Shown here: positions 25,413 to 45,835 of the stretch, in pieces | How the letters are laid out: each line of letters begins with the position of its first letter | Position numbering within the stretch: the first letter of the stretch is position 1 | From: Candidatus Bathyarchaeota archaeon | Lineage (GTDB): Archaea; Thermoproteota; CALKCG01; B24; JAGTQN01 | Reading direction: 5' to 3' | Assembly (NCBI GenBank): GCA_018396395.1 | Contig: JAGTQN010000001.1 | Coordinates: forward strand, 1-54,755 | Length of the DNA stretch: 54,755 nucleotides | Position numbers and translations under genes: made by a program | The notes under the pieces: generated by a model | The model's database searches: none | What the model saw: the letters and a program-made list of their open reading frames with translations, nothing else | Told to the model about the DNA's origin: nothing

Positions 25413-25504
25413 GATGCCTTCTAATTAGGTCATTTTCATCTATAGTCTCTGAATAGCCCATCTAAGGCTTTCTATACCCTTCCCTGATCATAGCGCACCT
25501 GAAA

Positions 25505-26506
25505 TTATGAGTAGTGAGGGATCTTTACAGCCCTCTTCAACTGGGCCGACTCTAAAACGGCATCAACGACTTCGAGAACTCTTAACCCATCAAGTACATT
25601 AATGGAGGGTGTTCTGTCCTCTATAACTGATGCTATGAACTCCCTAAGCTCACGTTCAAACATAGGATAAGTGGAATCTTCCATAAACCTGATTGTTGTA
25701 GGATTTGCATACTCGATCATTTTTGAGCTATGAACTAAGAGATAATTATCCCTCCATTCGCTTTTCATATGACCTTCTGACCCGATGACTTCTACAGAAT
25801 CGATTGATTTAGATGCCCGCATGGTCAGGCTAAGACTCGCCAAAACACTATTCTTGAATCGAATGATGAAGGAGACGGTTTCGTCAACTCCAAAGGTTGG
25901 ATGAACGTTTACCTCAGCAAGCACCTCCTCAGCTCTGCTTCCAATCATCCATAAAACTTGATCTATGAGATGTACGCCCAGATACCTTAGTATGCCTCCA
26001 CCCTTTGGCTCCTCAAGTAACCATCCGCGAAGCAGACCAGTCCCCTTTACCGCGAGAACTAAATAAACCTCTCCTACGATGCCTTTGTCAAGGAAATTTT
26101 TCATCAATGATCTAGAAGCTAAAAATCGTTGGCAGTATCCAACCATGAGTTTTGCTCCACTTCTCTCAACGGCTTCAACTAGCTCCTTTGCTTCAATACT
26201 GTTCTTTGCCATTGGTTTTTCGACAAAAGTTGGCTTTCCCGCTTCAAGACAATCTATAGACACATTTTTCAACGCAAAATGAGGAACAGCAATGAGGACG
26301 GCATCCACATTCCCCTTTTCCAGTAACTCATAATGGTCTCTATAGTAGTTTTTAACTTTGAACTCCTCAGCGAATCGCTTCGCTATAGTCTCATTCACAT
26401 CTGCTACAGCTATAAGCTTACATCCATCGATCCTTCCAAGAACCGTAGAGAGAGTCCTTCCTTGGTTGCCACATCCAATAAGCCCCATACTTAACTCTCT
26501 GACCAA
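25505..26506 (-). CDS. Gfo/Idh/MocA-family NAD(P)-dependent oxidoreductase
   Basis: N-terminal Rossmann motif GLIGCGNQG, the conserved FVEKPMA motif, and the typical C-terminal alpha/beta domain. Confidence 0.9.
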   Translation of the reverse strand: MVRELSMGLIGCGNQGRTLSTVLGRIDGCKLIAVADVNETIAKRFAEEFKVKNYYRDHYELLEKGNVDAVLIAVPHFALKNVSIDCLEAGKPTFVEKPMAKNSIEAKELVEAVERSGAKLMVGYCQRFLASRSLMKNFLDKGIVGEVYLVLAVKGTGLLRGWLLEEPKGGGILRYLGVHLIDQVLWMIGSRAEEVLAEVNVHPTFGVDETVSFIIRFKNSVLASLSLTMRASKSIDSVEVIGSEGHMKSEWRDNYLLVHSSKMIEYANPTTIRFMEDSTYPMFERELREFIASVIEDRTPSINVLDGLRVLEVVDAVLESAQLKRAVKIPHYS

Positions 26507-26781
26507 GAATTATAACTCCCCTTGTCGCTTGGCTGAGAGGTTATGGGGATTTATGTCTATAAGTATTGTGCTTTATGGGATGATACCGTCAAGTTTTGGT
26601 AGACTAAATAGACTTTATTCTCTTTATCTCATTATGGATCGTGTTGACGAGGTTCTTATGAAGGTTCTAGCCGATGGTCCTAAGCTTGACGGTATCTATG
26701 GGGATGGTGTTGTATCCATGAAAAGCATCTGAATTCTCTACCGGGCTTCGTATGCGTAAGAACACATCCTAACACCTTCAT

Positions 26782-27602: not shown

Positions 27603-27938
27603 GTCATGGCTTCACTTTAAGTCTTTAACATAACTTCCTCCACGAGGCTTTAGCATAGAAAGTAACTCGGATTCCGAGGATTCGCAAGAAGCCTTCCTTA
27701 GAGCCATACGATCCCTAAATGATTGTAGTAGCCCCTCCAGACTTCAATCCGTGTCTTTGTATGCCTTAAGGGCTTATGGCATTTACAAGGAAAGTATGGG
27801 ATAGACCAAAAGAAAGAAGTCCTGAAGCCTTCGCTTGACTGCCTCGCTTAGCCTTTAGTTTCTATTTACATCGTAATGAAGATTACGCTATTCAACGAAC
27901 CAAATTAAAAAAGAAAAGAGAGGTGGGTATATCAATTG

Positions 27939-29924
27939 TTAGAACTCTACAGTAACGCCTGGAGTCTTGAACCACCTTGGTACTACATATGCAGCCATAA
28001 ACACAAATGACATTAGCGCACCACCCATGGCTATGCCTATGAAAAGAGGTAAATATTTTTCGTAGAGTTTCGTTCCTCCGGTCTTGAGCATAGCGAACTT
28101 GGCAAGCCAGACGATTATCGCCATGAACCAAATTCCAGTGTAGTTATACTCAGCTGAAAAACCGATAATGATGCCGATCGGATGGAATGGCCACCACGCA
28201 AAACGGGTCCTAAGGAACCACATAACCCCAGGTAGGAGAAATGCAAGGGCTGCCGTAGACCAGTCGGTTGAGCCCCATCCAGGACCGTGGGGCATCCAGT
28301 TCGCAAGCCCACTTCCGCTCTTCACCATCGCTGCCGCTTCCTGAGGCCCTAAAGCCGTCCAAGGCCAGTTTGTGTACCCTTGGGTCATAGTGCTCCAGTA
28401 CGCTATCGAGAAACCGACGAATATTGAAACAGCGAGAGCACTAAGCGAGGCTACGATGACATCTTTCATATTCGTGCCAGTATCTGATGCAACCCTACAA
28501 GCGACAAGCGTGGCTATGGAGTTGTTGTCCTGCGCATACGAGGCTGTATAAAAGCCGCTCCAGAGCATCTCATTAAGCATTCCAGGTTTCTGGCTTAAGT
28601 TGGCGTAGGCATCGATAAAGCCGTTACTACCCCAGAACAGCTCATTGGCTGGGTAATACCACAGGAAAGTCGTTGTGAAGGCGAAACCTGTTTCAAGAAG
28701 CATGCGTACGATCCCAAGGAACAGGATGAGGTTTAGGATGATGTTTACGAGCATAAATTCGGGACTAGCCCCGAAAGCTACAGGTATCAGCCATTGTAGC
28801 AAAAGGGAAACTACAAACATGAGTAGCAATGTCCTCGTCGTGAAGCCCTGTAGCCGGATTTCCTCCGCAGCTTTCTCAGCAGAAGGCTTGCCTAAAGCAG
28901 CCCTAACTATGTTGATGACATTCCTCCAACCAAAGACTAGCATCCATACACCCAGCGAGAAGAGTCCCCAATATGCAGAAAACTGTCCATAGTAATGTGA
29001 AAGTGGAGCGTACCAAAGGAGCGCACCTCGACCCTTACTAGAGACATCCGGCCAACCAAGAATCCATACGCCTATAGGCGGAATGAGAATTCTCATAATG
29101 AAGTAAGAGAGAAACATTGTCATTAAGATGTCTTGAGGCACAAGGAATAGGAGGGATATCACGATAAGATTGTATCCTGGATAGAAACCCGCATTCGGTA
29201 ATGGCGGGTATATCTGGGTATTGACATCCCAGTTGGGGATTGTAGGGATGATTTGAAGGTTCCAAAGCGTGGGCGGAATGGTATAGATGACTCCGATTAT
29301 TAACCCAATCCAGAAGAACTTGTTGAGGATCCTAGGCCTCCCTACCTCCGATACGGGTCGGTCGATCATTGCTAAGGGTATGTGAGCCATTGGAAAGGAA
29401 AGCTTTTCAACATCTATCCATTGGCTCTTCCAAAGCAGGGCAGCGAAATTCAAGGTGAAGACTGCGAAGATCATCGCGAGAGAGGATATGACAACAGTTG
29501 CTGGTGAGTAAAGCAACGGGTTAAGGAAGGGCTTCAGTTGCGGTCCACCACCTCGCGTCATAGCGGCCCAGATCCAGAACTGCGGGCCCCCCATTGCCAA
29601 GTAAGTGGCCGTAAAGGCTGGTGCAAAGGACATCGTAAGTACAATAAGGGCTTCATGGGGGCTAAGTCTATACCTTCGCGGAAGAACTGCTGTAATTGCT
29701 GCGACGAAAAAAAATGGTATAAACGCTTGTAAATTATAAGTCCATTGACCGAAACCACCTTTAGGTGCCCAGAAACCGAAGTCTGATCCAGCAAAGCTGT
29801 GTCCCCAAACGCCGTATGTGGTATTCATAGTCTCAAGAGTCCAGTAAACCGTAAAAATGACCGCCAAAGCCATTCCAATCGCTGTGGCTCGAGGCGTCAG
29901 TCCTCTTGTTATAGCTTCTCCCAT
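27939..29924 (-). CDS. Polytopic membrane protein, putative permease; distant paralogue of 22901..24847
   Basis: 661 aa with many TM helices. N-terminal GLTPRATAIGMALAVIF. It shares the motif VEKLSFPM (IERLQFPL in the other protein) and has a similar length. Confidence 0.55.
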   Translation of the reverse strand: MGEAITRGLTPRATAIGMALAVIFTVYWTLETMNTTYGVWGHSFAGSDFGFWAPKGGFGQWTYNLQAFIPFFFVAAITAVLPRRYRLSPHEALIVLTMSFAPAFTATYLAMGGPQFWIWAAMTRGGGPQLKPFLNPLLYSPATVVISSLAMIFAVFTLNFAALLWKSQWIDVEKLSFPMAHIPLAMIDRPVSEVGRPRILNKFFWIGLIIGVIYTIPPTLWNLQIIPTIPNWDVNTQIYPPLPNAGFYPGYNLIVISLLFLVPQDILMTMFLSYFIMRILIPPIGVWILGWPDVSSKGRGALLWYAPLSHYYGQFSAYWGLFSLGVWMLVFGWRNVINIVRAALGKPSAEKAAEEIRLQGFTTRTLLLMFVVSLLLQWLIPVAFGASPEFMLVNIILNLILFLGIVRMLLETGFAFTTTFLWYYPANELFWGSNGFIDAYANLSQKPGMLNEMLWSGFYTASYAQDNNSIATLVACRVASDTGTNMKDVIVASLSALAVSIFVGFSIAYWSTMTQGYTNWPWTALGPQEAAAMVKSGSGLANWMPHGPGWGSTDWSTAALAFLLPGVMWFLRTRFAWWPFHPIGIIIGFSAEYNYTGIWFMAIIVWLAKFAMLKTGGTKLYEKYLPLFIGIAMGGALMSFVFMAAYVVPRWFKTPGVTVEF

Positions 29925-29985
29925 TTTTCATCAAATAAAGTTAAACTTATGTAACTTAAAAGTTTTGCGGTTTACATAAACTGTA

Positions 29986-29999
29986 CTGTAACCTTAAGC
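29986..29999 (+). repeat. Solo copy of the IS6-like element terminal repeat
   Basis: ctgtaaccttaagc is a 14/14 match to 20200..20213. A weaker copy, tgtaacttaaaag, lies about 35 bp upstream. Confidence 0.5.
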
Positions 30000-30142
30000 T
30001 GTAGAATGAATTTATTCATAAACCTCTTTAACATTAGTAGTATGCAATCGGCGAGAAGAAGAGATAGCTAAAACACAAGAATAGTCCACAAAGCACAAGT
30101 TTTTACATGATGGATAGATATTTTCTAAAGGCATCCATCCTT

Positions 30143-32782
30143 TTAGAATTCAAGTAAGACCTCTGCATAACCGTGAAACGGCTCAATCCTAACTGTCTCG
30201 GTATTAGCATCGTAAACACCGCCTTTTACTTTGTTCGCCTTTCTGCCTTGTGGATGAGGCAGACGAAGTTCTAAGCATTTCGGCTTCCTGTCCGAGAGGC
30301 ATTTCACTTTCGATTCAATCCTGCATTGTTCCAATTTTGATTCTACCTTCAACGATACTTCTCCAAAATAGCTGGCAACTCTGTTTAGTTCTATAGATGT
30401 GCCGTTTTCCATCCAAGATCTGGGGATCCCTGGGAGCAGCTTAAGAGTTTGACCTTGCTCCATCCAGAGCATCCATCGCGTTTGCATAAGGAACCAGCCT
30501 TCTTCATGTGTTTTGTGGGAGCTTCCAACACCCGGATAATGTTCCCAGAAAGTGTAGGTCTCTCGGTCAGCTAGGCTTGCGAAACCATTATAATAAGCCT
30601 TAAGAAACGGCTTAATCTCCCCTCGCCGAAGATGAACCTGTGGGTGACAGCTATAATAAGGTTGGCTAAAAGCCACATTACGCATATACATCAACTCTGT
30701 ATAGTAGCTCACAAGGAAATCGGCGATTCGTTCACTCGGATCTAAGACTTCGTGAAAAATAAGGTGGAGTGGTCCAAGCAAAGAGTCTCTAGCTAAGAAA
30801 GTAAGGTGGGTAAACCATCTGCCTTTTTCCGCGTAAAGCGAGACGGGGCCGCGTGCTTCGGCCCAAGGTGGAGCAGTTGGGCACCATGTTCCGTCACTAA
30901 GCGGAACAACCGGTGAGTTTGCCACAGCCTCAAACAAAGCCTCACGAATATCCTTTTTCCAATCTTCAGCCTCTCTGGCAAGCCTCTCTGATTGAGCAGG
31001 ATCCACTTTAGAGAGCATCTCCGAAGCACGGCTTAAACCAAGATATGCGTATCCGTTCAGCATAAACTGGTGGTAGGGGTCTTGCGGATCGGCGACTTTT
31101 CCTTCGATCATGCCGTAGCCTTTACCGCGTAACTCCTCCCTCTTGTTACGGTTACGCCATTCTAAAAGACGCTCACAAGCCTTAAGCAGTTTCGGCTTGA
31201 TCTGTTGAACCCAGTTGTCGTCATGTGTGTAGCGGTAATGCTCACCCATAACCCATAATGCTGCTCCCGTTTCCAGCATGTATCCATCGAAGTTCTGGAT
31301 AAATCCGTCTTCATGTTGCTTATCAAGAAAATACGTCAAAGAACGCCTAGCCAGACTATGCCAACCCATGGAGTCCATGAACTGAATGATTGGTGAACTC
31401 TCTGAGCCGATCGGACAGTATACCCCAATGGTAGCCGCAACGGTGCCGAATGGTTCAAGACCATACGCAACGAGATCTAAATGAAGCAAGCCCGCCTGCA
31501 TCATCTCTTCAATCCGTTTTTCAGGTAGTTTCACCTTAGCAGCGGACTCCAGCTTCTCTTTCCAAAATTCGCGGCATTCGGCGTGAAGCATTGTAAAGTC
31601 TCGCTTTCTCAGTCGCTTAGCCCTTTCTCTGGAGATGGGACGATGGGGAAGAAAGAACTCGAATGAGGCTGTTTCCCCAGGTTTAAGCAGAACAGCTAAC
31701 TCCTCCTGAGGCATTGGTTTCCCGTTTAATTTTGAGATGCAAAAGACCTGTCCACTTTCAAAAACTCCGAATCCGTCCTTTCCATCATACGACCATCTCA
31801 AAGCCTTTTTTGAACTAGGAAAAACGTTTTTAAACCATGCATAGCGAGGTACATAAGCAGAATTCACCGCTTCGGTTCTAAAGCAGAGCACGGTCTCTTC
31901 TTCGCAGCTCATCTCTTCAGGCAGAAGCGATTGGAATTCTCGTTCTTGCTCTTTCGTGAAAATATGGCCGTATCCATAGCCGTCAGCAACCAAGAAGTGC
32001 GTGCCCCGCAGCGACTTAGTTGTAAGCTTGGTTGATTCAAGCGTAACAAATACAGTGGAGTTATAGATTACATCATCATCGACGAGTACTCCGTGTAGAA
32101 TCGGTAGCACACCTTCTTCCAGATGCCGAGACATCCTTTCGGCACAGCCTATTCCGCGGCCGATAAAAAAGTTGTATCGGACGGGGTTGTTGTCAGCCTC
32201 TGGAAGTGGAACTGGGTAGCCATGGAATCGTGGCTGAATCCAATCCCAAACTTCCTGTCCAATCCGAAAACTAAACTCGAAGATTCGAATGTCTCTACTA
32301 AGTCCCAGCCAAGTTGGGCAGTGGAGTTCTCGAGTATTCGCCGCAGCCGATGCGTAACTTTCTTCCGGCTCGCTTTCTATACGCTGAAGTTTCGTTTGTA
32401 GTCCGCGGCTACGAATCTCTTCAGCGATCTGCTCATAGGAACGTTCATCATCTGCCTCAGTCACAACTATCCCGTATTCTGGGATGATGATGGGATATTC
32501 CTTACTGACATCTCTGAGAAAGAAACTAAACGGATTGATAGCTGTGTGAACAGTAATTAATGTTGTCTCTGATCCCAAACTGCAACCAGACTCATCAACA
32601 GTAATCTCCAGCCTGCAAGATCCATGGAATGCGAAAGAGAATTCGTCATCTACGACTTCACCTTTACCCTTCTTAATGAGCACCTCCTTCAGTCTACCAT
32701 TAACTACTTTTATTCGGCCTGTTGGTTTGCCATTCTTCCATTCTATAGCTATGCTCCTGCCCATAATAGGCACTTCTCCCAT
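30143..32782 (-). CDS. Large cytoplasmic protein with an (alpha/alpha)6 six-hairpin glycosidase-like C-terminal half; family not recognised
   Basis: 879-aa uninterrupted ORF with no signal peptide. The segment LDKQHEDGFIQNFDGYMLETGAALWVMGEHYRYTHDDNWVQQIKPKLLKACERLLEWR has the periodic helix-hairpin character of GH15/GH63/GH78/GH95-type toroids. This is judged by eye only. Confidence 0.45.
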   Translation of the reverse strand: MGEVPIMGRSIAIEWKNGKPTGRIKVVNGRLKEVLIKKGKGEVVDDEFSFAFHGSCRLEITVDESGCSLGSETTLITVHTAINPFSFFLRDVSKEYPIIIPEYGIVVTEADDERSYEQIAEEIRSRGLQTKLQRIESEPEESYASAAANTRELHCPTWLGLSRDIRIFEFSFRIGQEVWDWIQPRFHGYPVPLPEADNNPVRYNFFIGRGIGCAERMSRHLEEGVLPILHGVLVDDDVIYNSTVFVTLESTKLTTKSLRGTHFLVADGYGYGHIFTKEQEREFQSLLPEEMSCEEETVLCFRTEAVNSAYVPRYAWFKNVFPSSKKALRWSYDGKDGFGVFESGQVFCISKLNGKPMPQEELAVLLKPGETASFEFFLPHRPISRERAKRLRKRDFTMLHAECREFWKEKLESAAKVKLPEKRIEEMMQAGLLHLDLVAYGLEPFGTVAATIGVYCPIGSESSPIIQFMDSMGWHSLARRSLTYFLDKQHEDGFIQNFDGYMLETGAALWVMGEHYRYTHDDNWVQQIKPKLLKACERLLEWRNRNKREELRGKGYGMIEGKVADPQDPYHQFMLNGYAYLGLSRASEMLSKVDPAQSERLAREAEDWKKDIREALFEAVANSPVVPLSDGTWCPTAPPWAEARGPVSLYAEKGRWFTHLTFLARDSLLGPLHLIFHEVLDPSERIADFLVSYYTELMYMRNVAFSQPYYSCHPQVHLRRGEIKPFLKAYYNGFASLADRETYTFWEHYPGVGSSHKTHEEGWFLMQTRWMLWMEQGQTLKLLPGIPRSWMENGTSIELNRVASYFGEVSLKVESKLEQCRIESKVKCLSDRKPKCLELRLPHPQGRKANKVKGGVYDANTETVRIEPFHGYAEVLLEF

Positions 32783-32981
32783 TCTCTAGTCTAGGATCTC
32801 TCCAGTTGATCTCGGATTCGAAACGCATTCAATCTAAGCCACCAGTCTTCGTAGAAGACTTTAAAATGTTTCCCTGCTTTGTGGATTAATATAAATTAAA
32901 TTGTACGACCCATGATCTTCCTTATCTACTGACTGAAGGGTTGTTCTTATATGACATGTCCTCGGCGAAGAATTTGAAAAA

Positions 32982-34982
32982 CTACGAATACTCCAAAGAG
33001 ATCTTGCTTACGATACCTTCTAACCCAAACTTGTTCACAGGCTTCGCTTGAAGCGTATTAATACCCTTGCGAAGGGTCCAAAGGAAACTAGAAGGCATTT
33101 CCACCCATTCTTCTTCATTGATCTTCACAAAGAACTTGTCAAAGTTCGGGGTGACTGTATCAATTTGTACCTTAAGCTTTCCCGGCTCCGCGTACTGAAG
33201 ATGTAATTCAGCTTGGTTTAAAGTCCATTCGAAGTCCGCATCCCTTGAAGAATATTTTGTGAACCAAGGAAAGGGTTTACTCGGGACTCCTGGCGCCCTT
33301 TCCCACCTTGAGACCTTTTCACTCTCGTACATAAGCCATCCATCATAGTTCCAAGGCAAAAGTCCCTCGCCATCTGCCTCGCAGGGTTCAAGGGAGCTTA
33401 AATGATCATTCCTCATATCCATAATGCCATATCCATTCCACATCATATCAAGCCTTTCCTGTGCGGTCCAGGCCGGGCGATCGGAAACAAGCTTGATTCC
33501 TTCATAGTTCTTGTCCAAGGCTGCTTTATAGGCTTCAAGGCCACTCATAGGAATACCGTTCCTTTCGAAATAGTAGGTGCATTTTCGCCTGTCATCAGGA
33601 TCCCCTGACATGTCTATAAGGACCCATTTCTTGTACTCGTTGGACCAGGCTTCGGCCGTCGCATGGACGGCAAGCATTCTACGTGCTTGTAACCCTACAG
33701 CTAAGCAACACTGGACGAAGGCCGCGCTATAATGGGTGCACATGCCTAAGGCTAGCTTCTTCCTGTCCAATTCCAGTATAAGAAGCCCGTCAGGAGGTGG
33801 ATTATAGTCTATATACCCGAATCTTCCACCCCAGTTGATAGCTGACTTCCAACCATCTTCCCATTGACTCCTTACCCACTCTGCAAGTCTCAGGAACTTC
33901 TCAAACTCTGTCTTAGCCCCTTTCACCACCCAGTCTAGTTGGTATCGTTCTCTAAGAATTTTCAGCCTTGGCTCATCATAAGGCTGGTAAGCGAAGGAAT
34001 AGGAGCTTCGAACAATCTTCTCGTTTCTGAACTCTCGTATCTTTATTCTTTCCTCATCTAAGCTTTCTTCTAAGGAAAGCTCAGCCGAAAGCGTGAGGCT
34101 GTAGAGCTCGGGTGTAGCCCTCGGATCGCATGTGGTCAGGGCAACCCTCCACTGCAGATAATGGTGGGAGGGATCTCTGAAATGGGGGCCCTTCACCAAG
34201 GCTTCTGGAGACATCCAATGCGTCCATGTTTTTGGCGAGTAGGAGGGCGTAGAACCGATCCTCGACTCGACCTCTATCGCTGTCCCTTCAGGTTCAATGC
34301 CCTCGTAGTTTATCCACAGACTTTCTAGACAAACCTTGGGGGCTATGGGACCTGACGTTGTTGAGGAGGCTACATCGATAAAGGGAGAGGTAACGTATCC
34401 CTTAGGTGGATACGCTTCGATCTTAAGCCTTATCAAGTATTCTCCATCGCAGGAGTTGTTGATTCCCATGTTATCGTAATTCCAAGTCTTGCCGCCATCG
34501 GCGCTCTTTGCGCTTCTATTTGGCTGTCTCGAATTTTCGATCCAGAACGTGTAGCCAAGGCTTCCCTCGGAGTGGAAGACGAACTCGTTCAGACCTTTCC
34601 TTAAATATTCGACTGGAAAAGGAATCTCCGTCCACTGCGTATCATAATTGAACCATTCTCTCCTAAACCTGTAGGACGCGGCTTCTCGTCCGTTAACCTC
34701 TAAAATGAGTGGCTCCTCTTCCCTAGCACTTATGAAGGGAATAACCTCTGCAGAGAAGACATTCGGGTTGTCTATTAAGAACTCTTTCTTAATCCAAACA
34801 TCTCCTTGGACTTGCTCCTTGGTTTTTCTACCGATTCTACCAATTTCATCGGCAAGAAGGATTCGTCTCCTCAATTTCAAGGCTCCAGAATTCGTTAGAT
34901 CAATTTTATAGTCCCTGAAGACTTCATCAAAGTCGTCGTATCCTTTCCAGGTTCTTGAGACCATAATCCTTTTCAATCGCAT
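32982..34982 (-). CDS. Transglutaminase-core (papain-like Cys protease fold) domain protein with N-terminal beta-sandwich modules
   Basis: LALGMCTHYSAAFVQCCLAVGLQARRMLAVHATAEAWSNEYKKWVLIDMSGD fits the transglutaminase-like core pattern G-x-C ... GLxAR ... H/W ... D. There is no signal peptide. Confidence 0.6.
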   Translation of the reverse strand: MRLKRIMVSRTWKGYDDFDEVFRDYKIDLTNSGALKLRRRILLADEIGRIGRKTKEQVQGDVWIKKEFLIDNPNVFSAEVIPFISAREEEPLILEVNGREAASYRFRREWFNYDTQWTEIPFPVEYLRKGLNEFVFHSEGSLGYTFWIENSRQPNRSAKSADGGKTWNYDNMGINNSCDGEYLIRLKIEAYPPKGYVTSPFIDVASSTTSGPIAPKVCLESLWINYEGIEPEGTAIEVESRIGSTPSYSPKTWTHWMSPEALVKGPHFRDPSHHYLQWRVALTTCDPRATPELYSLTLSAELSLEESLDEERIKIREFRNEKIVRSSYSFAYQPYDEPRLKILRERYQLDWVVKGAKTEFEKFLRLAEWVRSQWEDGWKSAINWGGRFGYIDYNPPPDGLLILELDRKKLALGMCTHYSAAFVQCCLAVGLQARRMLAVHATAEAWSNEYKKWVLIDMSGDPDDRRKCTYYFERNGIPMSGLEAYKAALDKNYEGIKLVSDRPAWTAQERLDMMWNGYGIMDMRNDHLSSLEPCEADGEGLLPWNYDGWLMYESEKVSRWERAPGVPSKPFPWFTKYSSRDADFEWTLNQAELHLQYAEPGKLKVQIDTVTPNFDKFFVKINEEEWVEMPSSFLWTLRKGINTLQAKPVNKFGLEGIVSKISLEYS

Positions 34983-35031
34983 CTACCCCCTCGCATCATA
35001 ATTTCTGGATTCTCGAGATTGGACAGGGTTA

Positions 35032-36282
35032 CTACCAAGGAGTCTCGTACCGGAACTCGGCTGGCTCTATCTTGCAGGGATAGGTTGGGCCTGGCTCTGA
35101 TAGGGCTATCATATACCTTTTCTCCCCAGGAACATATACGCCGCTAAAGAGAGTTACTAAGCGGTAGAAAGAAGGCATTCTGTCCAAGTGCTTGCAGATG
35201 GGCGATGGAAGCGTATGGTCCCTAAGGATCTTCCACATGGAATCTACTGTAAGCTCGAGTTTCTCGTCTTCCGTCAGCCTTCTGAGGTTAAGCCACCTTT
35301 GGTAATGAAATTTGTATTGCTCTGACGAATTGTCTAGGAGGTGCCGCGTTTCTGGATGGACAGCTACCCCATCAGTTGTGAAGATCGTATCGCCCTTTGG
35401 TCTGAGAATGCCTATATGCCTCCAAGACTTCTCTACTACGGCTGCATCTCCCTTGGCGTCAACAAGGGCTATGTTAGAACAACGACGTGTGAACATGTTG
35501 TATCGCTTAAACATCTCCAACGCCTCTCCCACGGTCGCACAGTACCGCATCACAAGATCCCCTACATCTACGGGAAAAAGTTCGTCGGGTTCTCCCTCCC
35601 CCGGATAATCGATACTGCTTCCCCACATGATGAGCCCCTTCTCATTCCCGATGGGGCCGGTACTGTAACCTAGGGATGGGGGTCTTAGGACGATCGTCGG
35701 GAAACAACCTTCGTAGCTCATCTTCGGTATCCAGTCAATCGAATCGTCTGTATTCCGCCCTATGATAGGGCCAATGTCTGTCTTCCTAAAGATGACGGTC
35801 GTACAGCCTGGAGCTACACAATCCAACCACTTTGCATGACCTTTCAGGAGCTGATAGACATCATACCAGAAACGGTAGAAAACTATGTCTTGAAAGGATA
35901 GATCCGCGCCCTCGGCCATACCCTTCATCTCATCCTGGATATACTCCTTCATACCCTTTAGCTCAGGGTATTTGTTTAGGTCGGGGACAGCATTGATCCT
36001 CTTCTCATAGGCTTGCTCAGCATGCCTATAAAGATCCTCTTGGGTCCATTTATCCAATGTCCGAATTGCCTCTAGTGGTAGCTTCCACATCTCTCTGGCA
36101 AACCTCCTCCAGTTTTCGATTTTTCCATAGAGGTCAAGGAAGCTTACAATAGACTCACGGCTAGATTTTCCATAGGTGAGGCCATTCTCATACCCTGACT
36201 CAGAAAGCCTTATGATCTTGATCTTCTTAGTAAGTGTGAACTCAAGTCTCACGTATTCGTTTTCTTGCATAATTTTTTTCAC
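35032..36282 (-). CDS. Peptidase C45-like Ntn hydrolase (acyl-CoA:6-APA acyltransferase family)
   Basis: The internal site APGCTTVIF..IIGRNTDD resembles the G/CTT autoprocessing site and the following N-x-D motif of C45 Ntn hydrolases. Confidence 0.55.
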   Translation of the reverse strand: MKKIMQENEYVRLEFTLTKKIKIIRLSESGYENGLTYGKSSRESIVSFLDLYGKIENWRRFAREMWKLPLEAIRTLDKWTQEDLYRHAEQAYEKRINAVPDLNKYPELKGMKEYIQDEMKGMAEGADLSFQDIVFYRFWYDVYQLLKGHAKWLDCVAPGCTTVIFRKTDIGPIIGRNTDDSIDWIPKMSYEGCFPTIVLRPPSLGYSTGPIGNEKGLIMWGSSIDYPGEGEPDELFPVDVGDLVMRYCATVGEALEMFKRYNMFTRRCSNIALVDAKGDAAVVEKSWRHIGILRPKGDTIFTTDGVAVHPETRHLLDNSSEQYKFHYQRWLNLRRLTEDEKLELTVDSMWKILRDHTLPSPICKHLDRMPSFYRLVTLFSGVYVPGEKRYMIALSEPGPTYPCKIEPAEFRYETPW

Positions 36283-36538
36283 CTTTCTTCAAGGTATTTT
36301 TCTTGGTGGGATTTTAAAGCCTTTCTATGACTTTTTAACCACAGTTTATCGATTATATAGAAGAATTTCATTCACTTCATAGATATTAACATCGCATAAT
36401 CAGAGGGTAAGAACTTTTAGATCCATACGGATCATCATGGTCTCACCATACCTATTTAGGAGCTCCCTTTATAGTTAGCCTTCTTAAGGCTTAAAACTCT
36501 CAACAATATACAGAAGGGACAAATAGAGGCAGACCGAT

Positions 36539-39500
36539 ATGAATATACGTGCTTTTGTTGTGAAAGCCTCTGACGATGGATTTTTCAGAGTTGAGGAAGC
36601 CATTCGATCAATCGGAGGAAAAGATGCACGAGTGAAGGTGAGCCTGTTCAAAGGTATCAACTTTCCCCTAACCTATCCAATCCCTTCCCGAATCGATGAA
36701 ACTGTTCAGGGATATGTAGGTTTAGGAGAATACGATATCGTCTCCCTGCTGGACGTAGATCCGGGCGTCCTCAGTCCTAAGGAATCTTTAAACTTGGTCG
36801 CCTATGTTGAGAACGGCGGCGGCCTTCTAATCACAGGCGGCCGCCACGCCTTAGGTAACGCAATAGGCTCTTATGAGGCTTTGAAAACCATCCTTCCAGT
36901 TTTTTTGGAAAAGAAGGAAGATGAGGTTAAGGTTGATACCCTCCCTGAAGTCTCCAAGGAGCACCCCATCGTTTATGGAATTCCCCTAGACAGAATTGGG
37001 AGGGTGACGGTCGTTCAACCAGTGATGCCTAAGCCTGACGCCGTAGTCATCCTTAAGGCATCAGGTTACCCCCTCCTCACAGTCTGGGAGCATGGCAAAG
37101 GAAGGGTAGCTGTCCTGTCGACTTACCCCCTCTTCCCCCGCAAGGGAAGGATGCTCATGGAAAAGGAGCTTTTCTTCGCAACCGACTTCTACGATGACTT
37201 ATTGAGGCAGCTTCTCATGTGGCTATCGCGGCGAGACGATAATCTCCTAATTAAGGAATTCTCATGCTCTCCAAGTAGAATCTTCCTAGGGAATCGGATA
37301 GTTGCCAATGCTGTCCTTTCCAGCGAAAAGTCTTCAAAACTTCGGGTGAGGTTCTCCGTTGGGAAGGAAGGCGAACTCTTGGCAGAGGAAGAACGAAGCA
37401 TTATGATCGAAGGTCCAATGAAGCTATCCTTTTCCTATGCCACAGAAGCTCTGCCAAACCTTTCTGGCTTTTTGGAGGCGAAGCTCGAGGTTCTGGAAGA
37501 TGATGGGAAGACTTTAAACCATAGGGACTGGACTGTCGAAGCAAGGAACAGGACGAGGCTTAGTCTCGAGATCGTTTCAAGGAAAGCTGTTGTGGCGCCG
37601 GGTTCATCGCTACAATTAAGCCTTCAAGCAGTTTCGGATGAGGAGGCCCCACCCGCGGAGCTTGAGGCGAAAGTGAAGATCATCGATTTCAGAGGTAAGA
37701 TCGTGTATGAATTCCCTTCCACAAAGATCTCTCTGAGAGATGGTACCTATGGAAGGGCGTCCATTAGCTACGATGTGCCGAACCTAGCCAAGGGAAGGTA
37801 TGAGCTTATCTACGAGCTTATTTCCCACGAGAGATTGGTAGATACTGGTCGGAAGCCTTTTCTGATAGTCGATCCTTTGGATTATGAGGACTTCTATCCT
37901 ATCATCGGAGAAGCCTGGGCCTTCTTCGATGAGGGAATGATAAAAGAATGGATTGAGGATACCATGGCCCATGGCTTCAACACGGTTGCCTTCGGAGGCG
38001 ATGGGATAGGGGATTATCATTGGGAGAAGGAGTATGATTGGGATAGGCTCCAGAACTTCGCAGAAGCCTACTCCCAAGAAAAAGGTTTGGCAGTAGCCAT
38101 CAACTACAGCCTCCTCATCGACTGCCGTAGAGATAGGCCGCCCACGGTCTGCGTGAACAACCCTGACTTTGAAAAGGCGGAGAAGGATTTACTTCTCCGG
38201 CAATTGAATGTAGCAGCGAAAATCCCGAGACTTTACGCCGTTGAGACAGTGGATGAACCCCTTGTTTCGCCAGATTCCGTATGCTACTGCCAATTTTGCA
38301 AGGAGGGATTCCAGAGGAAGTATGGATTAGAAATGCCAATTATGAGTAGGATAAGGGATTACGATGTCGAAACCCGTCTGAAGCTGTACGAATGGCTCAG
38401 CGACTACTGGGCGAAGGGCTTCAGGACGATGTACGAGCTGAAGCGTCAAGCAGGCTTTAGGTTCAATCTTGCCCATACTTTCTGCCAACTCTCCTTCGGA
38501 ACCTTTTGCCCAGAATACTACTATAGAGACAGCTTCGCTTGGGCACCCTACTGCGATATCCTCGACTTCGACGTATATCCATACATGTATCCTATGTGGA
38601 GGGGCTCTGAAAGGCTTAGGTTCCATGCGCTTCATTACCATCTGAGTGCCCACAAGGCCCTCACAAGGTTCTACGGCAAACCTCTTGGATTCTTCGTAGA
38701 GACTACGGAGCGCAACTATCCTATGTATATTCCGCCTGTAAAGGCAAGCAGCGAAATTGCCTACACGGCCATTGCCCACGGTGTCAACTACCTGAAGACT
38801 TTCATAAACGTCCCGTTCACGGGTCCTCCTTCCAACAATGGTCCGAGTGAGGCAAGGTGGGATCAGTTTGGTGAGGAATTGAGGAAGATCAATGCCGTCA
38901 GCCCCCTCTTTACGAAGTGCAAGAAGACTAGGCCACGCTTCGCCATGCTTTTCGCCTTCTCAGACTGGCTACTCAACCATTATCATGCGCCCGGAATGGA
39001 GCGCGGCTGGCCAAAGCATATGGAGGACAGGCCCCTGAACAGGGTTTTTCCTTTCGAGTACACGCCTTGGAATATCTATGAAGCATGTTTCAGGGCCTTC
39101 GGAGAGCTGGAGGTCCTTCATGAAAAGCTCGTCGATGCGGGCGAGCTAAGGAATTATAAAGCTCTAGTCCTCTCCCGCATGAAATTTATACCTGACTCGG
39201 TGGCCGAAGCCATTAAGAGCTTCGTCTCTGAAGGTGGCATCCTCATCTTTGATGGAATACCATCCTTCAACCAGAGGGGAGAGGAGAGGGCATCCCTTGC
39301 TGAACTCGTAGGAGGGGAAGTCGTCGAGTTGAAGGAGGGCTTAGAGGCTAGGAAGGGGATTTATGGGAAGGGAAGGACCCTTTTCTTCAACTTCGATTTT
39401 GACGATGTCTACAGCTCTGCCGTCGAGAGAGGAGACGAGGACCTTATGCGATACCTTGAGAGGATTATCAGGGACTTCCTGTTCAGGGAAGGGCTGAGGC

Positions 39501-40063
39501 CGAATGTTCACTCCACGAACCCTGAGGTCGAGGCTGGCCTCTGGGAAGGTCGAAATACTCTAATCCTCGTTCTTGTCAACCACAGTAGCAAAAGGGAGGA
39601 GTCAAGCCTTACTATCTATAAGCCTGCATTCTTGCCAAACTACGCGTATGATGTTGCCAACCTTGAGGAGATATCCTTTAGGGTAGAGGATGGTGACATT
39701 AAGCTAAACGTAAGGCTAGAGGAAAGGGAGGGAAGGATCGTTGCCTTCTATCCAGAAAGGGTTTTTGGAAACAGAATAGAGGTGGAAACGATGCAGGTAA
39801 AAAGGGGTGAAGATTTATGCTATAGGATCATTGTTGAAGGCCAGAACTGCAATCCCGCGAAAGGACACCATGTTATAGAGGTGACCGTATCGGATCCGGA
39901 GGGAAGGTTCCTAGCACGCTATGGAGGGTTGCATTCCACAACGGACGGAGTATATGAGAAGCGAATACCATTGGCTATAAATGAGCTTGAAGGCATCTGG
40001 ACCATAACGGCCTACGAGAGGTATACGAGGCGAAGGAGTAGAGCTCAATTTCGCGTCGTCTAG
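36539..40063 (+). CDS. Multidomain GH42-like glycosidase homologue (N-terminal GATase1-like domain, Ig-like repeats, TIM-barrel, GH42-type trimerisation-like domain)
   Basis: N-terminal VAYVENGGGLLITGG is a GATase1-like/DUF1355-type motif. The central AHGFNTVAFGG ... AVETVDEPLVSPDSVCYCQFCKEGFQRKYG resembles the GH42 NE-plus-CxC-x2-C block. C-terminal NYKALVLSRMKFIPDSVAEAIKSFVSEGGILIFDG resembles the GH42 trimerisation domain. Confidence 0.55.
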   Translation: MNIRAFVVKASDDGFFRVEEAIRSIGGKDARVKVSLFKGINFPLTYPIPSRIDETVQGYVGLGEYDIVSLLDVDPGVLSPKESLNLVAYVENGGGLLITGGRHALGNAIGSYEALKTILPVFLEKKEDEVKVDTLPEVSKEHPIVYGIPLDRIGRVTVVQPVMPKPDAVVILKASGYPLLTVWEHGKGRVAVLSTYPLFPRKGRMLMEKELFFATDFYDDLLRQLLMWLSRRDDNLLIKEFSCSPSRIFLGNRIVANAVLSSEKSSKLRVRFSVGKEGELLAEEERSIMIEGPMKLSFSYATEALPNLSGFLEAKLEVLEDDGKTLNHRDWTVEARNRTRLSLEIVSRKAVVAPGSSLQLSLQAVSDEEAPPAELEAKVKIIDFRGKIVYEFPSTKISLRDGTYGRASISYDVPNLAKGRYELIYELISHERLVDTGRKPFLIVDPLDYEDFYPIIGEAWAFFDEGMIKEWIEDTMAHGFNTVAFGGDGIGDYHWEKEYDWDRLQNFAEAYSQEKGLAVAINYSLLIDCRRDRPPTVCVNNPDFEKAEKDLLLRQLNVAAKIPRLYAVETVDEPLVSPDSVCYCQFCKEGFQRKYGLEMPIMSRIRDYDVETRLKLYEWLSDYWAKGFRTMYELKRQAGFRFNLAHTFCQLSFGTFCPEYYYRDSFAWAPYCDILDFDVYPYMYPMWRGSERLRFHALHYHLSAHKALTRFYGKPLGFFVETTERNYPMYIPPVKASSEIAYTAIAHGVNYLKTFINVPFTGPPSNNGPSEARWDQFGEELRKINAVSPLFTKCKKTRPRFAMLFAFSDWLLNHYHAPGMERGWPKHMEDRPLNRVFPFEYTPWNIYEACFRAFGELEVLHEKLVDAGELRNYKALVLSRMKFIPDSVAEAIKSFVSEGGILIFDGIPSFNQRGEERASLAELVGGEVVELKEGLEARKGIYGKGRTLFFNFDFDDVYSSAVERGDEDLMRYLERIIRDFLFREGLRPNVHSTNPEVEAGLWEGRNTLILVLVNHSSKREESSLTIYKPAFLPNYAYDVANLEEISFRVEDGDIKLNVRLEEREGRIVAFYPERVFGNRIEVETMQVKRGEDLCYRIIVEGQNCNPAKGHHVIEVTVSDPEGRFLARYGGLHSTTDGVYEKRIPLAINELEGIWTITAYERYTRRRSRAQFRVV

Positions 40064-40208
40064 TCCCTGCCTAAATATATCTTCCTTATGGAACGTGAAG
40101 TAAAAATGGTAATTGACATAATGAAAGCTTCCATATCCATTGAGGAAAAAGCAGTAGCCGAATTCATCCTTTTTTCTTACATCTCATTCCCATCTGATAG
40201 GATAGACC

Positions 40209-42176
40209 CTACGGTACATCCCTGAGGGCTTCAAGCAACTCCCTTAATACTTCAACTGGCGGTGGATGCAGACTCCCCGGTCTAAGCCAACCGTTGCCTA
40301 TGATTCCCTTTCCTTTCAGGCTTTCAACAAGCTTCCATCGAGCTTCGACAGCATCGAGGGCCTCTTTTAGGTAGTCCTTCAGCCTTTCCGAATGGGATAT
40401 GAGCATCTCCTTCCTACGAATGATGCCCTTGGCTATCTCCAGCCAATGCTCAGGATAACTGGGACCAGGTTGAAAATACACGAAGGGATCTATATAGAAT
40501 TCTGGAAGACCAAGGTCCTCGAGTTTCCTCAGGGCCCTTATGGCCTTTATGGTAGCTTCGTTGTAATCGAGTCCAAGCCTTAAGAAATCAAGCCTCTCCT
40601 TGACACGATCATCTTCCACCAATCGATAGGCTTCCTCAAGGTCTCGTCTGCAATCCTCTAGAAGGCCTGGCTTGTAGAAGGCGAGAAGTTGATGGTAAAG
40701 ATGCCGCGGCCCTAGTAGCCTCTCTGAGTCTATGAAGCCCTCCCTCTCCGTGGCTATCCTCCACGCCTCCATCAAGCGGTTGAAGTACTTCTCCACAGCC
40801 TTACCAGCCTTTCTGAAGGCTTTCGAATAGAAGTCTTGTAGGATCTCATCTAGGTCGAGGCTTGAGTCCCAGAGTAGCTTAGCTGCCACATAGTAGTTCA
40901 GCCCGTTTATCGCCCAGTCGTCCACCCATTGAGTGAAGTACATCCTAACACCCTCCTTATGCAGACGCTTTATAGAGGTATCTATAAGGGGTAGGATGAG
41001 GCGGAGCATCTCAGGCCAAGCGGCATTTATATAATATTCATAGATCATGATTCGACTCGCATCGTTATTAGCCGCCCTTATCCATCTTTTCAACCGCTCA
41101 AAGTCCAGCTCGCGCCTTGCGACATTCCAATGCCCGATGCAGGTCATCGTGTACCAGACCACAACGTTCTTGTGAAGACGAAGCCTCCTTGGCGGCTCCA
41201 CATAGTACCAATAAGCCAGCACTATGATGAGTTTGCCAGGATGAGTCTTCTCCAACTCTTCGGCGATCTGATTGGCGAAGATGAACACCCTATTCGTCAT
41301 GGACAGCCCACTCAACGGATCAGCAACAGGAAGGGGTGGGCGATTTGGCGTGTAAGTCTCTCCCGTATCTAACGCTCGACAGTTAGGGCACTCGCAAAAA
41401 CCAGGAGCATCCTCGGGACTCCAGTAGACCCCTGCGAGCTCTGGGTTCTCGTCAAGATACTTGCGAATTCGCTCTACGATAATCCTAAGAACTTCAGGAT
41501 TGCTTGTGCAAAGCTGAGGTTTCGGGGAACTCGTATCCCTCTTTCCTCCCCTTAGGGCGAAGTATTCTGGATGCGTTTCGGCAAACTCCTTATTCCAATC
41601 GAATTCCCAATCTCTTCCGAACTTTACGCTTCCACCAAGCTTGTTGGCTTTTGCCCATAGTTGCATGGACGGGTCTGTAGGCCATGATCCATAAGGCGAG
41701 GGACCCGTTCCTACATCCCGCACAACGAAACTGGGTTCATGACACTCATCAATCTCAGGAATGAGGATTGAACTAGTCTTAGGAACGATTTCCCAAAGCT
41801 CCCCTGGGAAGAACCATCTGATACCAAGATATTTTTCGAGAAAATGGAAGACAGAGAACTGCGTACCATCATCGTCCTTTCCCAGTAAGATAAGGTTCTC
41901 ACCGACGGTCTTGATTATGAAGCCTTCTTGCGCTATTTTTTCGAGGCTTATCACCAACTTCGATACAAATTCAGTATAACCTATATGTATGAGGTTTCCT
42001 TTGAGATCATCTCTATACGTTTGAATAGAAAGTCTCGCTCCCGTGGCCTTTTCGATGTATTTTTGCAATTGATAAGCAGCGAGTCTATCGGTCTCTCTGG
42101 GTTGAGAGGAAAGCACGATGGTAGCATTCGCAGAACCATCCTTTACGAGAAACATGAATAACCCATCTATATTCAA
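40209..42176 (-). CDS. DUF4838-family protein (glycoside-hydrolase-like)
   Basis: ANATIVLSS..AAYQLQKYIEKATGARL..EGFIIKTVGENLILLGKDDDGTQFSVFHFLEKYLGIRWFFPG is the characteristic DUF4838 N-terminus. The Cys motif FCECPNC follows. Confidence 0.6.
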   Translation of the reverse strand: MNIDGLFMFLVKDGSANATIVLSSQPRETDRLAAYQLQKYIEKATGARLSIQTYRDDLKGNLIHIGYTEFVSKLVISLEKIAQEGFIIKTVGENLILLGKDDDGTQFSVFHFLEKYLGIRWFFPGELWEIVPKTSSILIPEIDECHEPSFVVRDVGTGPSPYGSWPTDPSMQLWAKANKLGGSVKFGRDWEFDWNKEFAETHPEYFALRGGKRDTSSPKPQLCTSNPEVLRIIVERIRKYLDENPELAGVYWSPEDAPGFCECPNCRALDTGETYTPNRPPLPVADPLSGLSMTNRVFIFANQIAEELEKTHPGKLIIVLAYWYYVEPPRRLRLHKNVVVWYTMTCIGHWNVARRELDFERLKRWIRAANNDASRIMIYEYYINAAWPEMLRLILPLIDTSIKRLHKEGVRMYFTQWVDDWAINGLNYYVAAKLLWDSSLDLDEILQDFYSKAFRKAGKAVEKYFNRLMEAWRIATEREGFIDSERLLGPRHLYHQLLAFYKPGLLEDCRRDLEEAYRLVEDDRVKERLDFLRLGLDYNEATIKAIRALRKLEDLGLPEFYIDPFVYFQPGPSYPEHWLEIAKGIIRRKEMLISHSERLKDYLKEALDAVEARWKLVESLKGKGIIGNGWLRPGSLHPPPVEVLRELLEALRDVP

Positions 42177-44569: not shown

Positions 44570-44590
44570 AGGCATAGGGGCATTAATGGT

Positions 44591-44661
44591 TGTAATTAAG
44601 ACACAAAATCCCTGATTAAGAGCGTTATTTTCTTTTTTCGTAGCTTTGTGTCTTAATTACA
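44591..44661. repeat. Perfect 17-bp inverted repeat with 37-nt spacer
   Basis: tgtaattaagacacaaa (44591-44607) pairs with tttgtgtcttaattaca (44645-44661). The spacer contains ttattttcttttttcg. Confidence 0.85.
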
Positions 44662-45719: not shown

Positions 45720-45835
45720 CTCTGTATTGAGGTATGTTTAAAGGTTTTTGCTAAACGTTATTGAGACGAAGGCTCTGGCTACACCTTGCGCTCCACGAAA
45801 AAATGCCCGAACGGCTTACCATGGCAATGTTTGTT

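Follow-up and report, generated by a model that had tools for sequence, protein, structure and literature searches.

The window analysed here is a 54,755-nucleotide stretch of a hot-spring Bathyarchaeia genome (assembly GCA_018396395.1, contig JAGTQN010000001.1), and our subject is the group of genes at 27939-42176, where a permease stands beside five large hydrolase-like proteins, together with the genes around it. Our best explanation, to which we assign a probability of about 0.42, is that these genes belong to a loosely organised catabolic neighbourhood, and not to a tight six-gene unit, that would import and digest small peptide-linked and perhaps sugar-decorated debris. The glycosidase-type folds (DUF4838, GH95-like, GH42-like motifs) that the initial annotation saw beside amide-cleaving folds (C45, transglutaminase core, M28) are indeed there, and the glycan or glycopeptide salvage that it proposed from them is plausible but only partly supported; the specific substrates that it named, such as N-glycan, S-layer or pseudomurein fragments, are putative. 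Hydrolase-like cytoplasmic enzymes, a secondary transporter and a predicted oligopeptide transporter (OPT) fold agree with the proposal, but a dedicated unit of permease plus five enzymes does not emerge from the comparisons described here.

The six open reading frames of the interval have exactly the coordinates, strands and lengths with which they were first described. Five lie on the minus strand: perm661 (27939..29924, 661 amino acids), a membrane protein with DUF6785 and DUF6784 domains that is predicted to be a distant OPT-fold secondary transporter; p879 (30143..32782, 879 amino acids), a remote GH95-like member of an unnamed conserved family; tg666 (32982..34982, 666 amino acids), a transglutaminase-core protein (papain-like Cys-His-Asp); c45_416 (35032..36282, 416 amino acids), a C45-family Cys-Ntn autoproteolytic amidohydrolase or acyltransferase; and duf4838_655 (40209..42176, 655 amino acids), a DUF4838 glycosidase-like protein with a GH67N-like N-terminal domain. 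The sixth, p1174 (36539..40063, 1174 amino acids), is on the plus strand and is a multidomain protein with GATase1-like domains, GH42-like motifs and MG2. On the perm661 side the neighbourhood continues with gfo333 (25505..26506, minus), by Pfam a Gfo/Idh/MocA NAD(P) sugar-type oxidoreductase; p648 (22901..24847, minus), a second polytopic membrane protein; m28_674 (20717..22741, minus), a cytoplasmic M28 metallopeptidase-like protein of 674 amino acids downstream of p648 (Pfam Peptidase_M28, 7e-23); and m28ftsx1490 (15684..20156, plus), which has an N-terminal anchor, a PA and M28 ectodomain and FtsX-type permease helices. A hydropathy scan marked many transmembrane-like segments in perm661 but did not mark any in the five enzymes, whose N-termini lack a signal-peptide-like h-region, so that the earlier statement that they carry no signal or anchor stands and all five are predicted to be cytoplasmic. 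The domain calls first made for the interval (a polytopic 661-residue permease, a 416-residue C45-type Ntn hydrolase, a 666-residue transglutaminase-core protein, a 655-residue DUF4838 protein and a six-hairpin glycosidase-like half in the 879-residue protein) were likewise upheld by the domain matches and the structure model given below, the transglutaminase core marginally so.

A scan of GTDB species representatives with a six-sequence permease alignment returned 80 loci, and we compared the window proteins with these and with other fetched loci (labelled L001, L008 and so on). The closest relatives are two Bathyarchaeia metagenome-assembled genomes (MAGs) from hot-spring samples of Jinze/Tengchong, GCA_038850515.1 and GCA_038870285.1, whose proteins are 91-98% identical to those of the window and whose gene order is GPN-loop GTPase, DUF4838, p1174, c45, tg666, p879, perm661 and gfo; the longer of the two contigs goes on through p648, M28 and M28-FtsX. 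All six genes of the interval occur together only in the window and in these two near-identical genomes. More distant Bathyarchaeia show what is retained. In L008, with a permease 76% identical, a 323-amino-acid Transglut_core protein is followed by c45 (51%), p1174 (47%), a small open reading frame, the permease, gfo, p648 and M28-FtsX; in L092 (permease 78%) the C-terminus of p1174, c45 (74%), the permease, gfo, p648 and M28 all lie on one strand; and L010 has the permease, gfo, p648 and M28. A gfo333 homologue adjoins the permease in all three, and an m28_674 homologue, 70% identical, comes after p648 in L010 and L092. The genes for p879, tg666 and DUF4838 were not found in the compared stretches of the Bathyarchaeia with 76-78% identical permeases. 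Thus the set comprising p1174, c45, the permease, gfo, p648 and M28 stays together through rearrangement, which is real evidence of linkage, and this conserved core is kept in three Bathyarchaeia lineages; in the lineage of the window, and there alone, p879 and tg666 were inserted in the space from c45 to the permease and DUF4838 was added on the far side of p1174. BLAST detects no similarity between tg666 and the 323-residue protein of L008 (2384-3355, minus), which stands divergently beside c45; genes with a transglutaminase core, in a different form, may recurrently accompany c45.

These comparisons bear directly on the model of the initial annotation, in which a dedicated permease and five enzymes formed one co-inherited and horizontally acquired salvage locus. 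In three MAGs the six genes stand side by side in conserved order, the enzymes are predicted to be cytoplasmic with glycosidase-like and amidase-like folds mixed, and bacterial proteins share about 60% identity with p879, which is consistent with inter-domain transfer of p879. However, the three MAGs (91-98% amino acid identity) resemble one another too closely for co-inheritance to be tested, three of the five enzymes are missing from the compared stretches of relatives whose permeases are 76-78% identical, the conserved partners of the permease family lie outside the interval, the insertion sequence (IS) relics of the region are insertions specific to the window, and the GC content of the interval (0.46-0.50) resembles that of the adjoining DNA. 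A single six-gene unit is thus not what the genomes show, L008 and L092 keeping another core, and we regard the model as improbable. The genes are not simply scattered in other genomes either: p879 is scattered in the seven genomes where its family was followed, but p1174, c45 and perm661 remain co-localised in L008 and L092.

An alternative at the other extreme is accretion, in which independent accessory catabolic genes collected in a variable, insertion-prone region and only sub-pairs such as c45 and the permease are functionally linked. The restriction of the full set to near-identical MAGs would be expected from it, as would the neighbours of p879, which differ in each distant genome sampled, the unrelated genes upstream of the p1174 homologue in L090, the long intergenic gaps and mixed strands, and the three window-specific mobile-element relics in the region. 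It accounts less well for the persistence of the core (p1174, c45, perm, gfo, p648, M28) through at least two rearrangements at 47-78% protein identity, and the genes gained are no random sample, each of them coding for a large hydrolase-like protein of the cytoplasm with a compatible theme (N-acetylhexosamine- or fucose-type glycosidase folds and a Cys hydrolase). We consider accretion rather unlikely, though it is the strongest of the rival explanations. None of the other cluster genes stands beside the p879-family genes in the seven more distant genomes sampled, where the neighbours differ, and p879 is accordingly not tied to the other cluster genes.

Outside the interval, a recurrent module was found in which a DUF6785-type gene is accompanied by a PA-M28-FtsX membrane protein of about 1500 amino acids and a p648-like gene. 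Loci with this module come from Bathyarchaeia (L011), Thermofilaceae (L058), Brocadiia (L038), Planctomycetota (L029, L071, L023) and Latescibacterota (L020, L025, L081). The M28-FtsX gene adjoins DUF6785-family and p648-like genes in these loci and in L008, and the p648-like gene is kept after gfo or M28-FtsX in L008, L010, L011, L092, L058, L038, L029, L025, L020 and L081. In the window, m28ftsx1490 matches Peptidase_M28 (9e-13), PA and FtsX (6e-12) in Pfam and shows membrane segments in the transmembrane scan, and m28_674 has no transmembrane segment by hydropathy. Of the 80 permease-anchored loci, 13 have a Gfo-family gene no more than 10 kb from a DUF6785 gene; gfo333 itself has two NCBIfam matches, both below cutoff, to inositol 2-dehydrogenase and to archaeal UDP-GlcNAc 3-dehydrogenase (E 1.4e-41). 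The permease is consequently not dedicated to the five enzymes as had been supposed; the genes that recur beside it encode a second OPT-like permease, Gfo/Idh/MocA and M28 or M28-FtsX proteins, and all of them lie outside 27939-42176. Inspected by eye for an ABC ATPase that might serve the FtsX domain, the small open reading frames between the permease and M28-FtsX in L023 and L029 showed no recognisable motif, and the idea of such a partner was set aside.

Elsewhere the family keeps other company. DUF6785 loci of Latescibacterota are rich in sulfatase, NagB-like, lactonase, HpcH aldolase, SelA-like, aldo-keto reductase, short-chain dehydrogenase/reductase and creatininase genes, and further DUF6785 neighbours are GH129-like, GH2, GH42-like, FGGY kinase, GGT and aminotransferase genes, with unrelated genes in some cases; the transporter family is associated with both carbohydrate and amide/peptide catabolism. 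These contexts are among the arguments for plain use of oligosaccharides or amino sugars (containing N-acetylhexosamine, HexNAc, or hexosamine, HexN; fucosylated; sulfated), with DUF6785 importing sugars and the amidase-type genes deacylating the N-acyl groups of sugars. The sulfatases, NagB-like, lactonase, aldolase and SelA/DgaE-like genes in Latescibacterota would suit such a role, as would the GH129-like, GH2, GH42-like and FGGY genes that adjoin family members, the recurrence of Gfo/Idh/MocA, the PIG-L genes linked to p879 and the EF_0837-type deacetylase nearby. On the other hand, the only solved structure that resembles the transporter is an OPT-family member, with peptides and amino-acid-derived chelates as known substrates, and M28 peptidases, including the ecto-M28, are the most conserved partners; we judge this alternative quite unlikely. 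DUF6785 genes are also often multiplied within loci, with two copies in L013, three in tandem in L046 (9476-15471) and two in L031. The Latescibacterota arrangement has one copy on either side of a run of sulfatase, NagB-like, lactonase, HpcH aldolase, SelA-like and creatininase genes. No SusC/SusD-type Pfam domain was found among the window genes scanned, and a polysaccharide utilisation locus of the Bacteroidetes type was set aside.

The two membrane proteins appear to be distantly related transporters. In Pfam, perm661 matches DUF6785 (8e-23) and DUF6784 (1e-17), and these were the only matches of a scan at E<=0.01 in which the Pfam OPT model gave none. An AlphaFold2 (AF2) model built from 32 sequences reached a predicted template modelling score (pTM) of 0.83 and a predicted local distance difference test score (pLDDT) of 73. 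When the model was compared with the PDB by Foldseek, the sole significant match was barley Yellow Stripe 1 (HvYS1; 7wst/7wsr, E 1e-9), with TM-scores of 0.61 and 0.66 (TMq/TMt) at about 12% identity; the next PDB match had an E value of 0.03 and a TM-score of 0.10. HvYS1 belongs to the OPT (oligopeptide transporter/Yellow Stripe-like) superfamily, TC 2.A.67. Because it is the only significant fold match, perm661 is predicted to be an OPT-fold secondary transporter by structure and not by the Pfam sequence model; known substrates of OPT-family members are peptides and amino-acid-derived chelates, and the modelled fold fits a peptide-containing substrate. Like OPT proteins perm661 is polytopic and all-helical, at about 650 amino acids, and its model matches HvYS1; unlike them it is filed under DUF6785/DUF6784, leaves the Pfam OPT model unmatched and has only some 12% identity to YS1. 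A full-library phmmer search gave 1328 representative relatives at E<1e-3 and just 4 at E<1e-30, so that perm661 is a divergent protein within a family of moderate spread; word-indexed homologue searches gave three matches for perm661 and two for p1174. For p648 no Pfam match was found, but a profile built from perm661 relatives matched it at E 1e-19, by which p648 is placed, distantly, in the same DUF6785/6784 (OPT-like) superfamily. The DUF6785/6784 family was seen in Bathyarchaeia, Thermofilaceae, Latescibacterota, Armatimonadota, Abditibacteriota and Planctomycetota, often beside the giant M28-FtsX protein, and a literature search on DUF6785/6784/6786 found nothing.

Among the predicted amide-cleaving enzymes, c45_416 exceeds the cutoff of NCBIfam NF040521 (C45_proenzyme) with 102.9 bits against 85, falls under that of Pfam AAT (19 against 23.2), and reads VAPG159/C160TTVIF inside the matched region, where G159-C160-T-T is a candidate Gly-Cys autoprocessing site that agrees with the one first proposed; a PDB sequence search gave no meaningful match. 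In tg666, Pfam Transglut_core covers residues 352-457 (E 7.5e-5) at 23.4 bits against a cutoff of 23, and C415, H440 and D457 form a candidate triad with typical spacing. Scanned alone with Pfam, its N- and C-terminal parts gave nothing usable, and a PDB sequence search with tg666 returned no match to PNGase or to any transglutaminase-fold protein. Its N-terminal region carries a canonical Asp-box (S-A-D-G-G-K-T-W, residues 160-167), which accounts for a weak sialidase match in the PDB search. Among the loci compared, homologues of tg666, like those of duf4838_655, were seen only in the two sister MAGs.

The C45 family also includes acyltransferases, and this is one of the observations from which a biosynthetic or envelope-remodelling locus might be argued, with a C45 acyltransferase, a transglutaminase cross-linker, GATase1-like amidotransferases, Gfo as a UDP-sugar dehydrogenase and an OPT-like exporter. 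The match of gfo333 to archaeal UDP-GlcNAc 3-dehydrogenase, under cutoff at E 1.4e-41, and the GNAT gene at 14567-15439 could be added in its favour. Yet no glycosyltransferase, nucleotide-sugar synthesis or flippase gene is present among the genes scanned at about 10.8-50.5 kb, all the enzymes are predicted to be cytoplasmic, and DUF4838, the GH95-like domain and the M28 peptidases represent degradative families, so that we hold such a role to be very improbable.

Three of the enzymes resemble glycosidases. One, with a strong domain match, is duf4838_655, in which Pfam DUF4838 (PF16126) is matched at E 6e-52 with 177 bits against a cutoff of 26.6; residues 125-465 span profile positions 3-324 of 325, and Glyco_hydro_67N matches the N-terminus at E 2.4e-4. 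In both GH163 BT1035 and GH185 Sp_0475 the catalytic domain is DUF4838, which is distantly GH20-like; BT1035 is an endo-beta-N-acetylglucosaminidase acting on complex N-glycans and Sp_0475 a cytoplasmic 6-sulfo-beta-GlcNAcase (PMC10570127). Members of the GH185 group have no signal peptide, and their presumed substrates are small oligosaccharides of the cytoplasm; the domain varies greatly, and 3826 sequences placed in a sequence similarity network fall into many clusters (PMC10570127). With its strong DUF4838 domain, and signal-less like the cytoplasmic GH185 cluster, duf4838_655 is probably a GH163/GH185-type, HexNAc-oriented glycosidase-like protein, and its domain is not wholly uncharacterised; it differs from the described enzymes in being placed in neither family and in having no C-terminal F5/F8 carbohydrate-binding module match. 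A PDB sequence search with it gave no DUF4838-domain entry and no meaningful match.

The GH42-like reading of p1174 survives in part. Its Pfam matches are GATase1_like (PF07090, 2e-8), MG2 (1.4e-8) and DUF7408 (3.8e-6), in the order N-terminal GATase1-like domain, Ig/MG2-like repeats, central motif domain, second GATase1/GH42M-like domain and C-terminal MG2, and it is multidomain as first described. At residues 850-934 there are sub-threshold matches to GLMA_2nd (E 1e-5, 25.5 against 27.7 bits) and Glyco_hydro_42M (E 8e-4, 19.4 against 25.8), but the Glyco_hydro_42 catalytic model matches neither the full protein nor residues 445-816 (372 amino acids) alone at E<=10. The Ig region scanned alone with Pfam gave nothing usable, PDB matches are the GATase1-like 2gk3, 3soz and 3rht, and a PDB profile search gave GATase1-like proteins only. 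What remains is a resemblance of motif. The central domain has C538, E573 (in DEP), C582-x-C584-x-x-C587 and E721, all invariant in three aligned homologues, with E573 nine residues before C582 and E721 148 residues downstream. In GH42 Gal42 the corresponding series is C113, E148 (in NEY), C153/C155/C158 and E305, comprising the Cys-Zn cluster and the acid/base and nucleophile Glu residues (PMC8573354). Compared with GH42 beta-galactosidases and the Thermococcus exo-beta-D-glucosaminidase GlmA, p1174 shares the succession of a central domain, a GATase1-like 'trimerisation' domain and a beta-sandwich, a C...CxCxxC motif preceded by Glu with a second Glu about 150 residues later, and the sub-threshold GH42M and GLMA_2nd matches; it departs from GH42 in having DEP instead of NEY and in its extra N-terminal GATase1-like domain, Ig-like repeats and C-terminal MG2. 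On motif resemblance and sub-threshold domain matches, GH42-like is thus a reasonable lead, short of assignment. Homologues are rare (two protein matches and three metagenome loci), and a GH42-like 852-amino-acid protein beside the permease in L011 proved unrelated to p1174. In duf4838_655, residues 223-266 contain C223, then 38 residues, then C261-x-C263-x-x-C266, with E255/D256 just upstream. This layout of the Cys cluster is that of the GH42 Zn site and of p1174 (C538...C582xC584xxC587), and the two proteins, of different TIM-barrel-type glycosidase-like kinds, may share a structural Zn site.

The third glycosidase-like protein, p879, belongs to a large and very conserved family. There are at least 1387 homologues, of which the best 120 are 57-93% identical over their full length, and bacterial homologues from Bryobacterales, Armatimonadota, Paenibacillaceae and Verrucomicrobia reach about 60% identity, again at full length; in an alignment of 34 sequences the column identity averages 62% and a large number of columns do not vary. 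For all that, p879 has no Pfam match, the isolated halves scanned alone gave nothing usable, its sole NCBIfam match (TIGR01577) is far under cutoff, an exact-sequence lookup returned no match, a PDB sequence search gave no meaningful match, and a PDB profile search with the alignment found only an insignificant stretch of GH63 YgjK. The AF2 model (pLDDT 85.9, pTM 0.88) consists, by DSSP, of an N-terminal beta-sandwich, an (alpha/alpha)6 barrel and a C-terminal beta-sandwich. Foldseek against the PDB places GH95 structures on top (E 2e-11 to 4e-10), followed by archaeal amylo-alpha-1,6-glucosidase, GH94/GH65 phosphorylases, GH15 and GH78, with about 10% identity and TM-scores of 0.40-0.53 for the best matches. 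Glyco_hydro_95_cat is weakly matched by 14 of the 34 family members (best E 0.0043) and not by p879 itself. The overall architecture is that of GH95 (alpha-1,2-L-fucosidase/alpha-L-galactosidase), GH94, GH65, GH15 and GH78, whereas the low identity and TM-scores and the lack of a hidden Markov model (HMM) match set p879 apart from GH95; the family is, by its model, remotely GH95-like and without a closely related solved structure, and could be either a hydrolase or a phosphorylase. Searching the literature for a GH95-related family already on record gave nothing pertinent.

The genes beside p879 homologues give some indication of what the family acts on. A PIG-L deacetylase gene is directly upstream of the homologue in Paenibacillus and Armatimonadota and within the same gene string in Cohnella (L096 7264-10640; L006 9096-12658; L007 2466-6028; L002 5933-12631), and enolase-superfamily (MR_MLE) genes are near homologues in two genomes. 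On a bacterial metagenome contig (L097, 1-10664), tandem paralogues of 887 amino acids each lie beside GH18 and a large GH38 alpha-mannosidase, an N-glycan-type neighbourhood. Taken together these contexts suggest a HexNAc/HexN- or N-glycan-related substrate, and the recurrent bacterial PIG-L neighbours suggest HexNAc/HexN substrates over fucosides; since PIG-L recurs and GH18 and GH38 adjoin, HexNAc-containing glycans are indicated for the family. The identity of about 60% to bacterial proteins would be compatible with an old inter-domain transfer of p879 alone.

Under the explanation that we prefer, an importing catabolic neighbourhood, extracellular peptide-containing debris would be trimmed at the cell surface by the PA-M28-FtsX protein, whose peptidase domain would face outward, and small peptide-linked conjugates would enter through proton-coupled OPT-like transport, on the assumption that transport is inward. 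In the cytoplasm C45 and M28 would cut amide bonds, together with the transglutaminase-core Cys hydrolase tg666 in the lineage of the window; the glycosidase-like p1174, p879 and DUF4838 proteins, if catalytically competent, would cut glycosidic bonds, and Gfo/Idh/MocA would oxidise the sugar or cyclitol released. The lineage-specific p879, tg666 and DUF4838 proteins would extend glycan trimming, so that glycopeptide, glyco-amino-acid or muropeptide-like fragments appear the most likely class of substrate, which is in keeping with the initial annotation. Any co-regulation of these genes is putative. Arrangements of this general form are familiar from bacterial salvage through an importer and cytoplasmic hydrolases, as in muropeptide recycling (AmpG/Opp, NagZ, AmpD), and from the Thermococcus chitobiose pathway (Dac and GlmA). 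The proposed likeness is that a small conjugate would be imported and its sugars, acyl groups and peptides then removed by signal-less cytoplasmic enzymes; the difference is that the canonical genes are not among the genes of the locus, and that the transporter type and the enzymes come from other, uncharacterised families.

Several observations weigh against this explanation. No enzyme of the locus can be assigned a function from its sequence, a point on which we agree with the initial annotation for all five, with the reservation that DUF4838 is known as the GH163/GH185 domain. The p879, tg666 and DUF4838 genes co-occur with the core only in near-identical MAGs, and their linkage to it is putative. 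The OPT placement of perm661 comes from fold, the Pfam OPT model being unmatched, and the Transglut_core score of tg666 is marginal. Some permease-family loci in Latescibacterota, of sulfated or amino-sugar acid type, are without peptidases, and the substrate of the permease family may for this reason be a sugar derivative rather than a peptide. The only one of the three p1174 metagenome loci with flanking sequence (L090) has unrelated upstream genes and is cut downstream by the contig end. Lastly, gaps of 49-256 bp (mostly about 200-250 bp) separate the genes of the six-gene interval and p1174 is divergent from c45, which makes a single operon unlikely and argues against a tight transcriptional unit.

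Loci that combine an importer with cytoplasmic hydrolases are already known, and every component here falls in a known superfamily or a catalogued DUF. A search for a described Bathyarchaeia locus of such a kind found nothing on target. Within the literature searched, the predicted assignment of an OPT fold to DUF6785/6784 is unreported, as are the partnership of DUF6785/6784 with the giant M28-PA-FtsX protein across two domains of life and the very conserved GH95-like family of p879, which has no HMM. Bathyarchaeia are among the most abundant archaea of sediments and hot springs and are thought to live on detrital macromolecules, and their transporters and intracellular enzymes are largely unannotated. 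If correct, our explanation would give a first functional context to the DUF6785/6784 membrane family, as an OPT-like importer, and to a GH95-like family that keeps about 60% identity across domains and has no Pfam or NCBIfam model, and would describe an archaeal route for salvaging glycosylated peptide debris. Even with the substrate set aside, the fold assignment and the recurrent transporter/M28-FtsX module are concrete, testable leads for annotation. A more ambitious version, which we think unlikely, would make DUF6785/6784 an unrecognised prokaryotic OPT branch whose two paralogues form, with PA-M28-FtsX, a 'trim-and-import' module of Bathyarchaeia, Thermofilaceae, Latescibacterota and Planctomycetota, feeding in the Bathyarchaeia lineage of the window a cytoplasmic pathway that would dismantle glycopeptides or muropeptides and consist wholly of uncharacterised enzyme families, namely C45, the GH42-motif giant, the GH95-like protein, DUF4838 and a PNGase-like transglutaminase core.

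Three mobile-element relics lie between genes of the wider cluster, all outside 27939-42176. A frameshifted IS110-family transposase relic (26580-27613, minus), with its N- and C-terminal segments in different frames, is between gfo333 and perm661; an internally deleted IS5-like relic (24930-25420, plus), with IS5-like N- and C-terminal peptides, is between p648 and gfo333; and an element resembling a miniature inverted-repeat transposable element, with terminal inverted repeats of about 18 nucleotides, occupies 20193-20714. The first two, which are no part of the proposed system, were recognised by eye from their translations, without an HMM test. The initial annotation had taken bordering IS relics as a sign of horizontal acquisition. 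The relics exist, but all three insertions are specific to the window and absent from the sister MAG in L001, which carries the same cluster, so that they are uninformative on how the cluster was acquired; as evidence for an acquired island they were discarded, and the right flank is without an identified IS.

The peptidase- and amidase-rich region extends from about 12.5 to 44.6 kb, far past the six-gene interval, given the additional M28-type proteins and GNAT gene at 12534-15439 and 20717-22741. These include a large, signal-less M28-type protein of 690 amino acids with DUF4910 (12534-14606, minus) and a 290-amino-acid GNAT protein (14567-15439, minus). At the other end, HMM calls identify an EF_0837-type amidohydrolase gene at 43433-44569; it and the Gfo/Idh/MocA gene at 25505-26506 are both present as first reported, by domain calls. 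The region is flanked by a PaREP1 gene (45836-46324) and other archaeal genes. Around PaREP1, 44790-47885 contains short broken open reading frames with hydrophobic, membrane-protein-like pieces of 73-120 amino acids and is probably a decayed transporter gene region, and just past the amidohydrolase gene a 26-nucleotide inverted repeat lies at 44582-44670.

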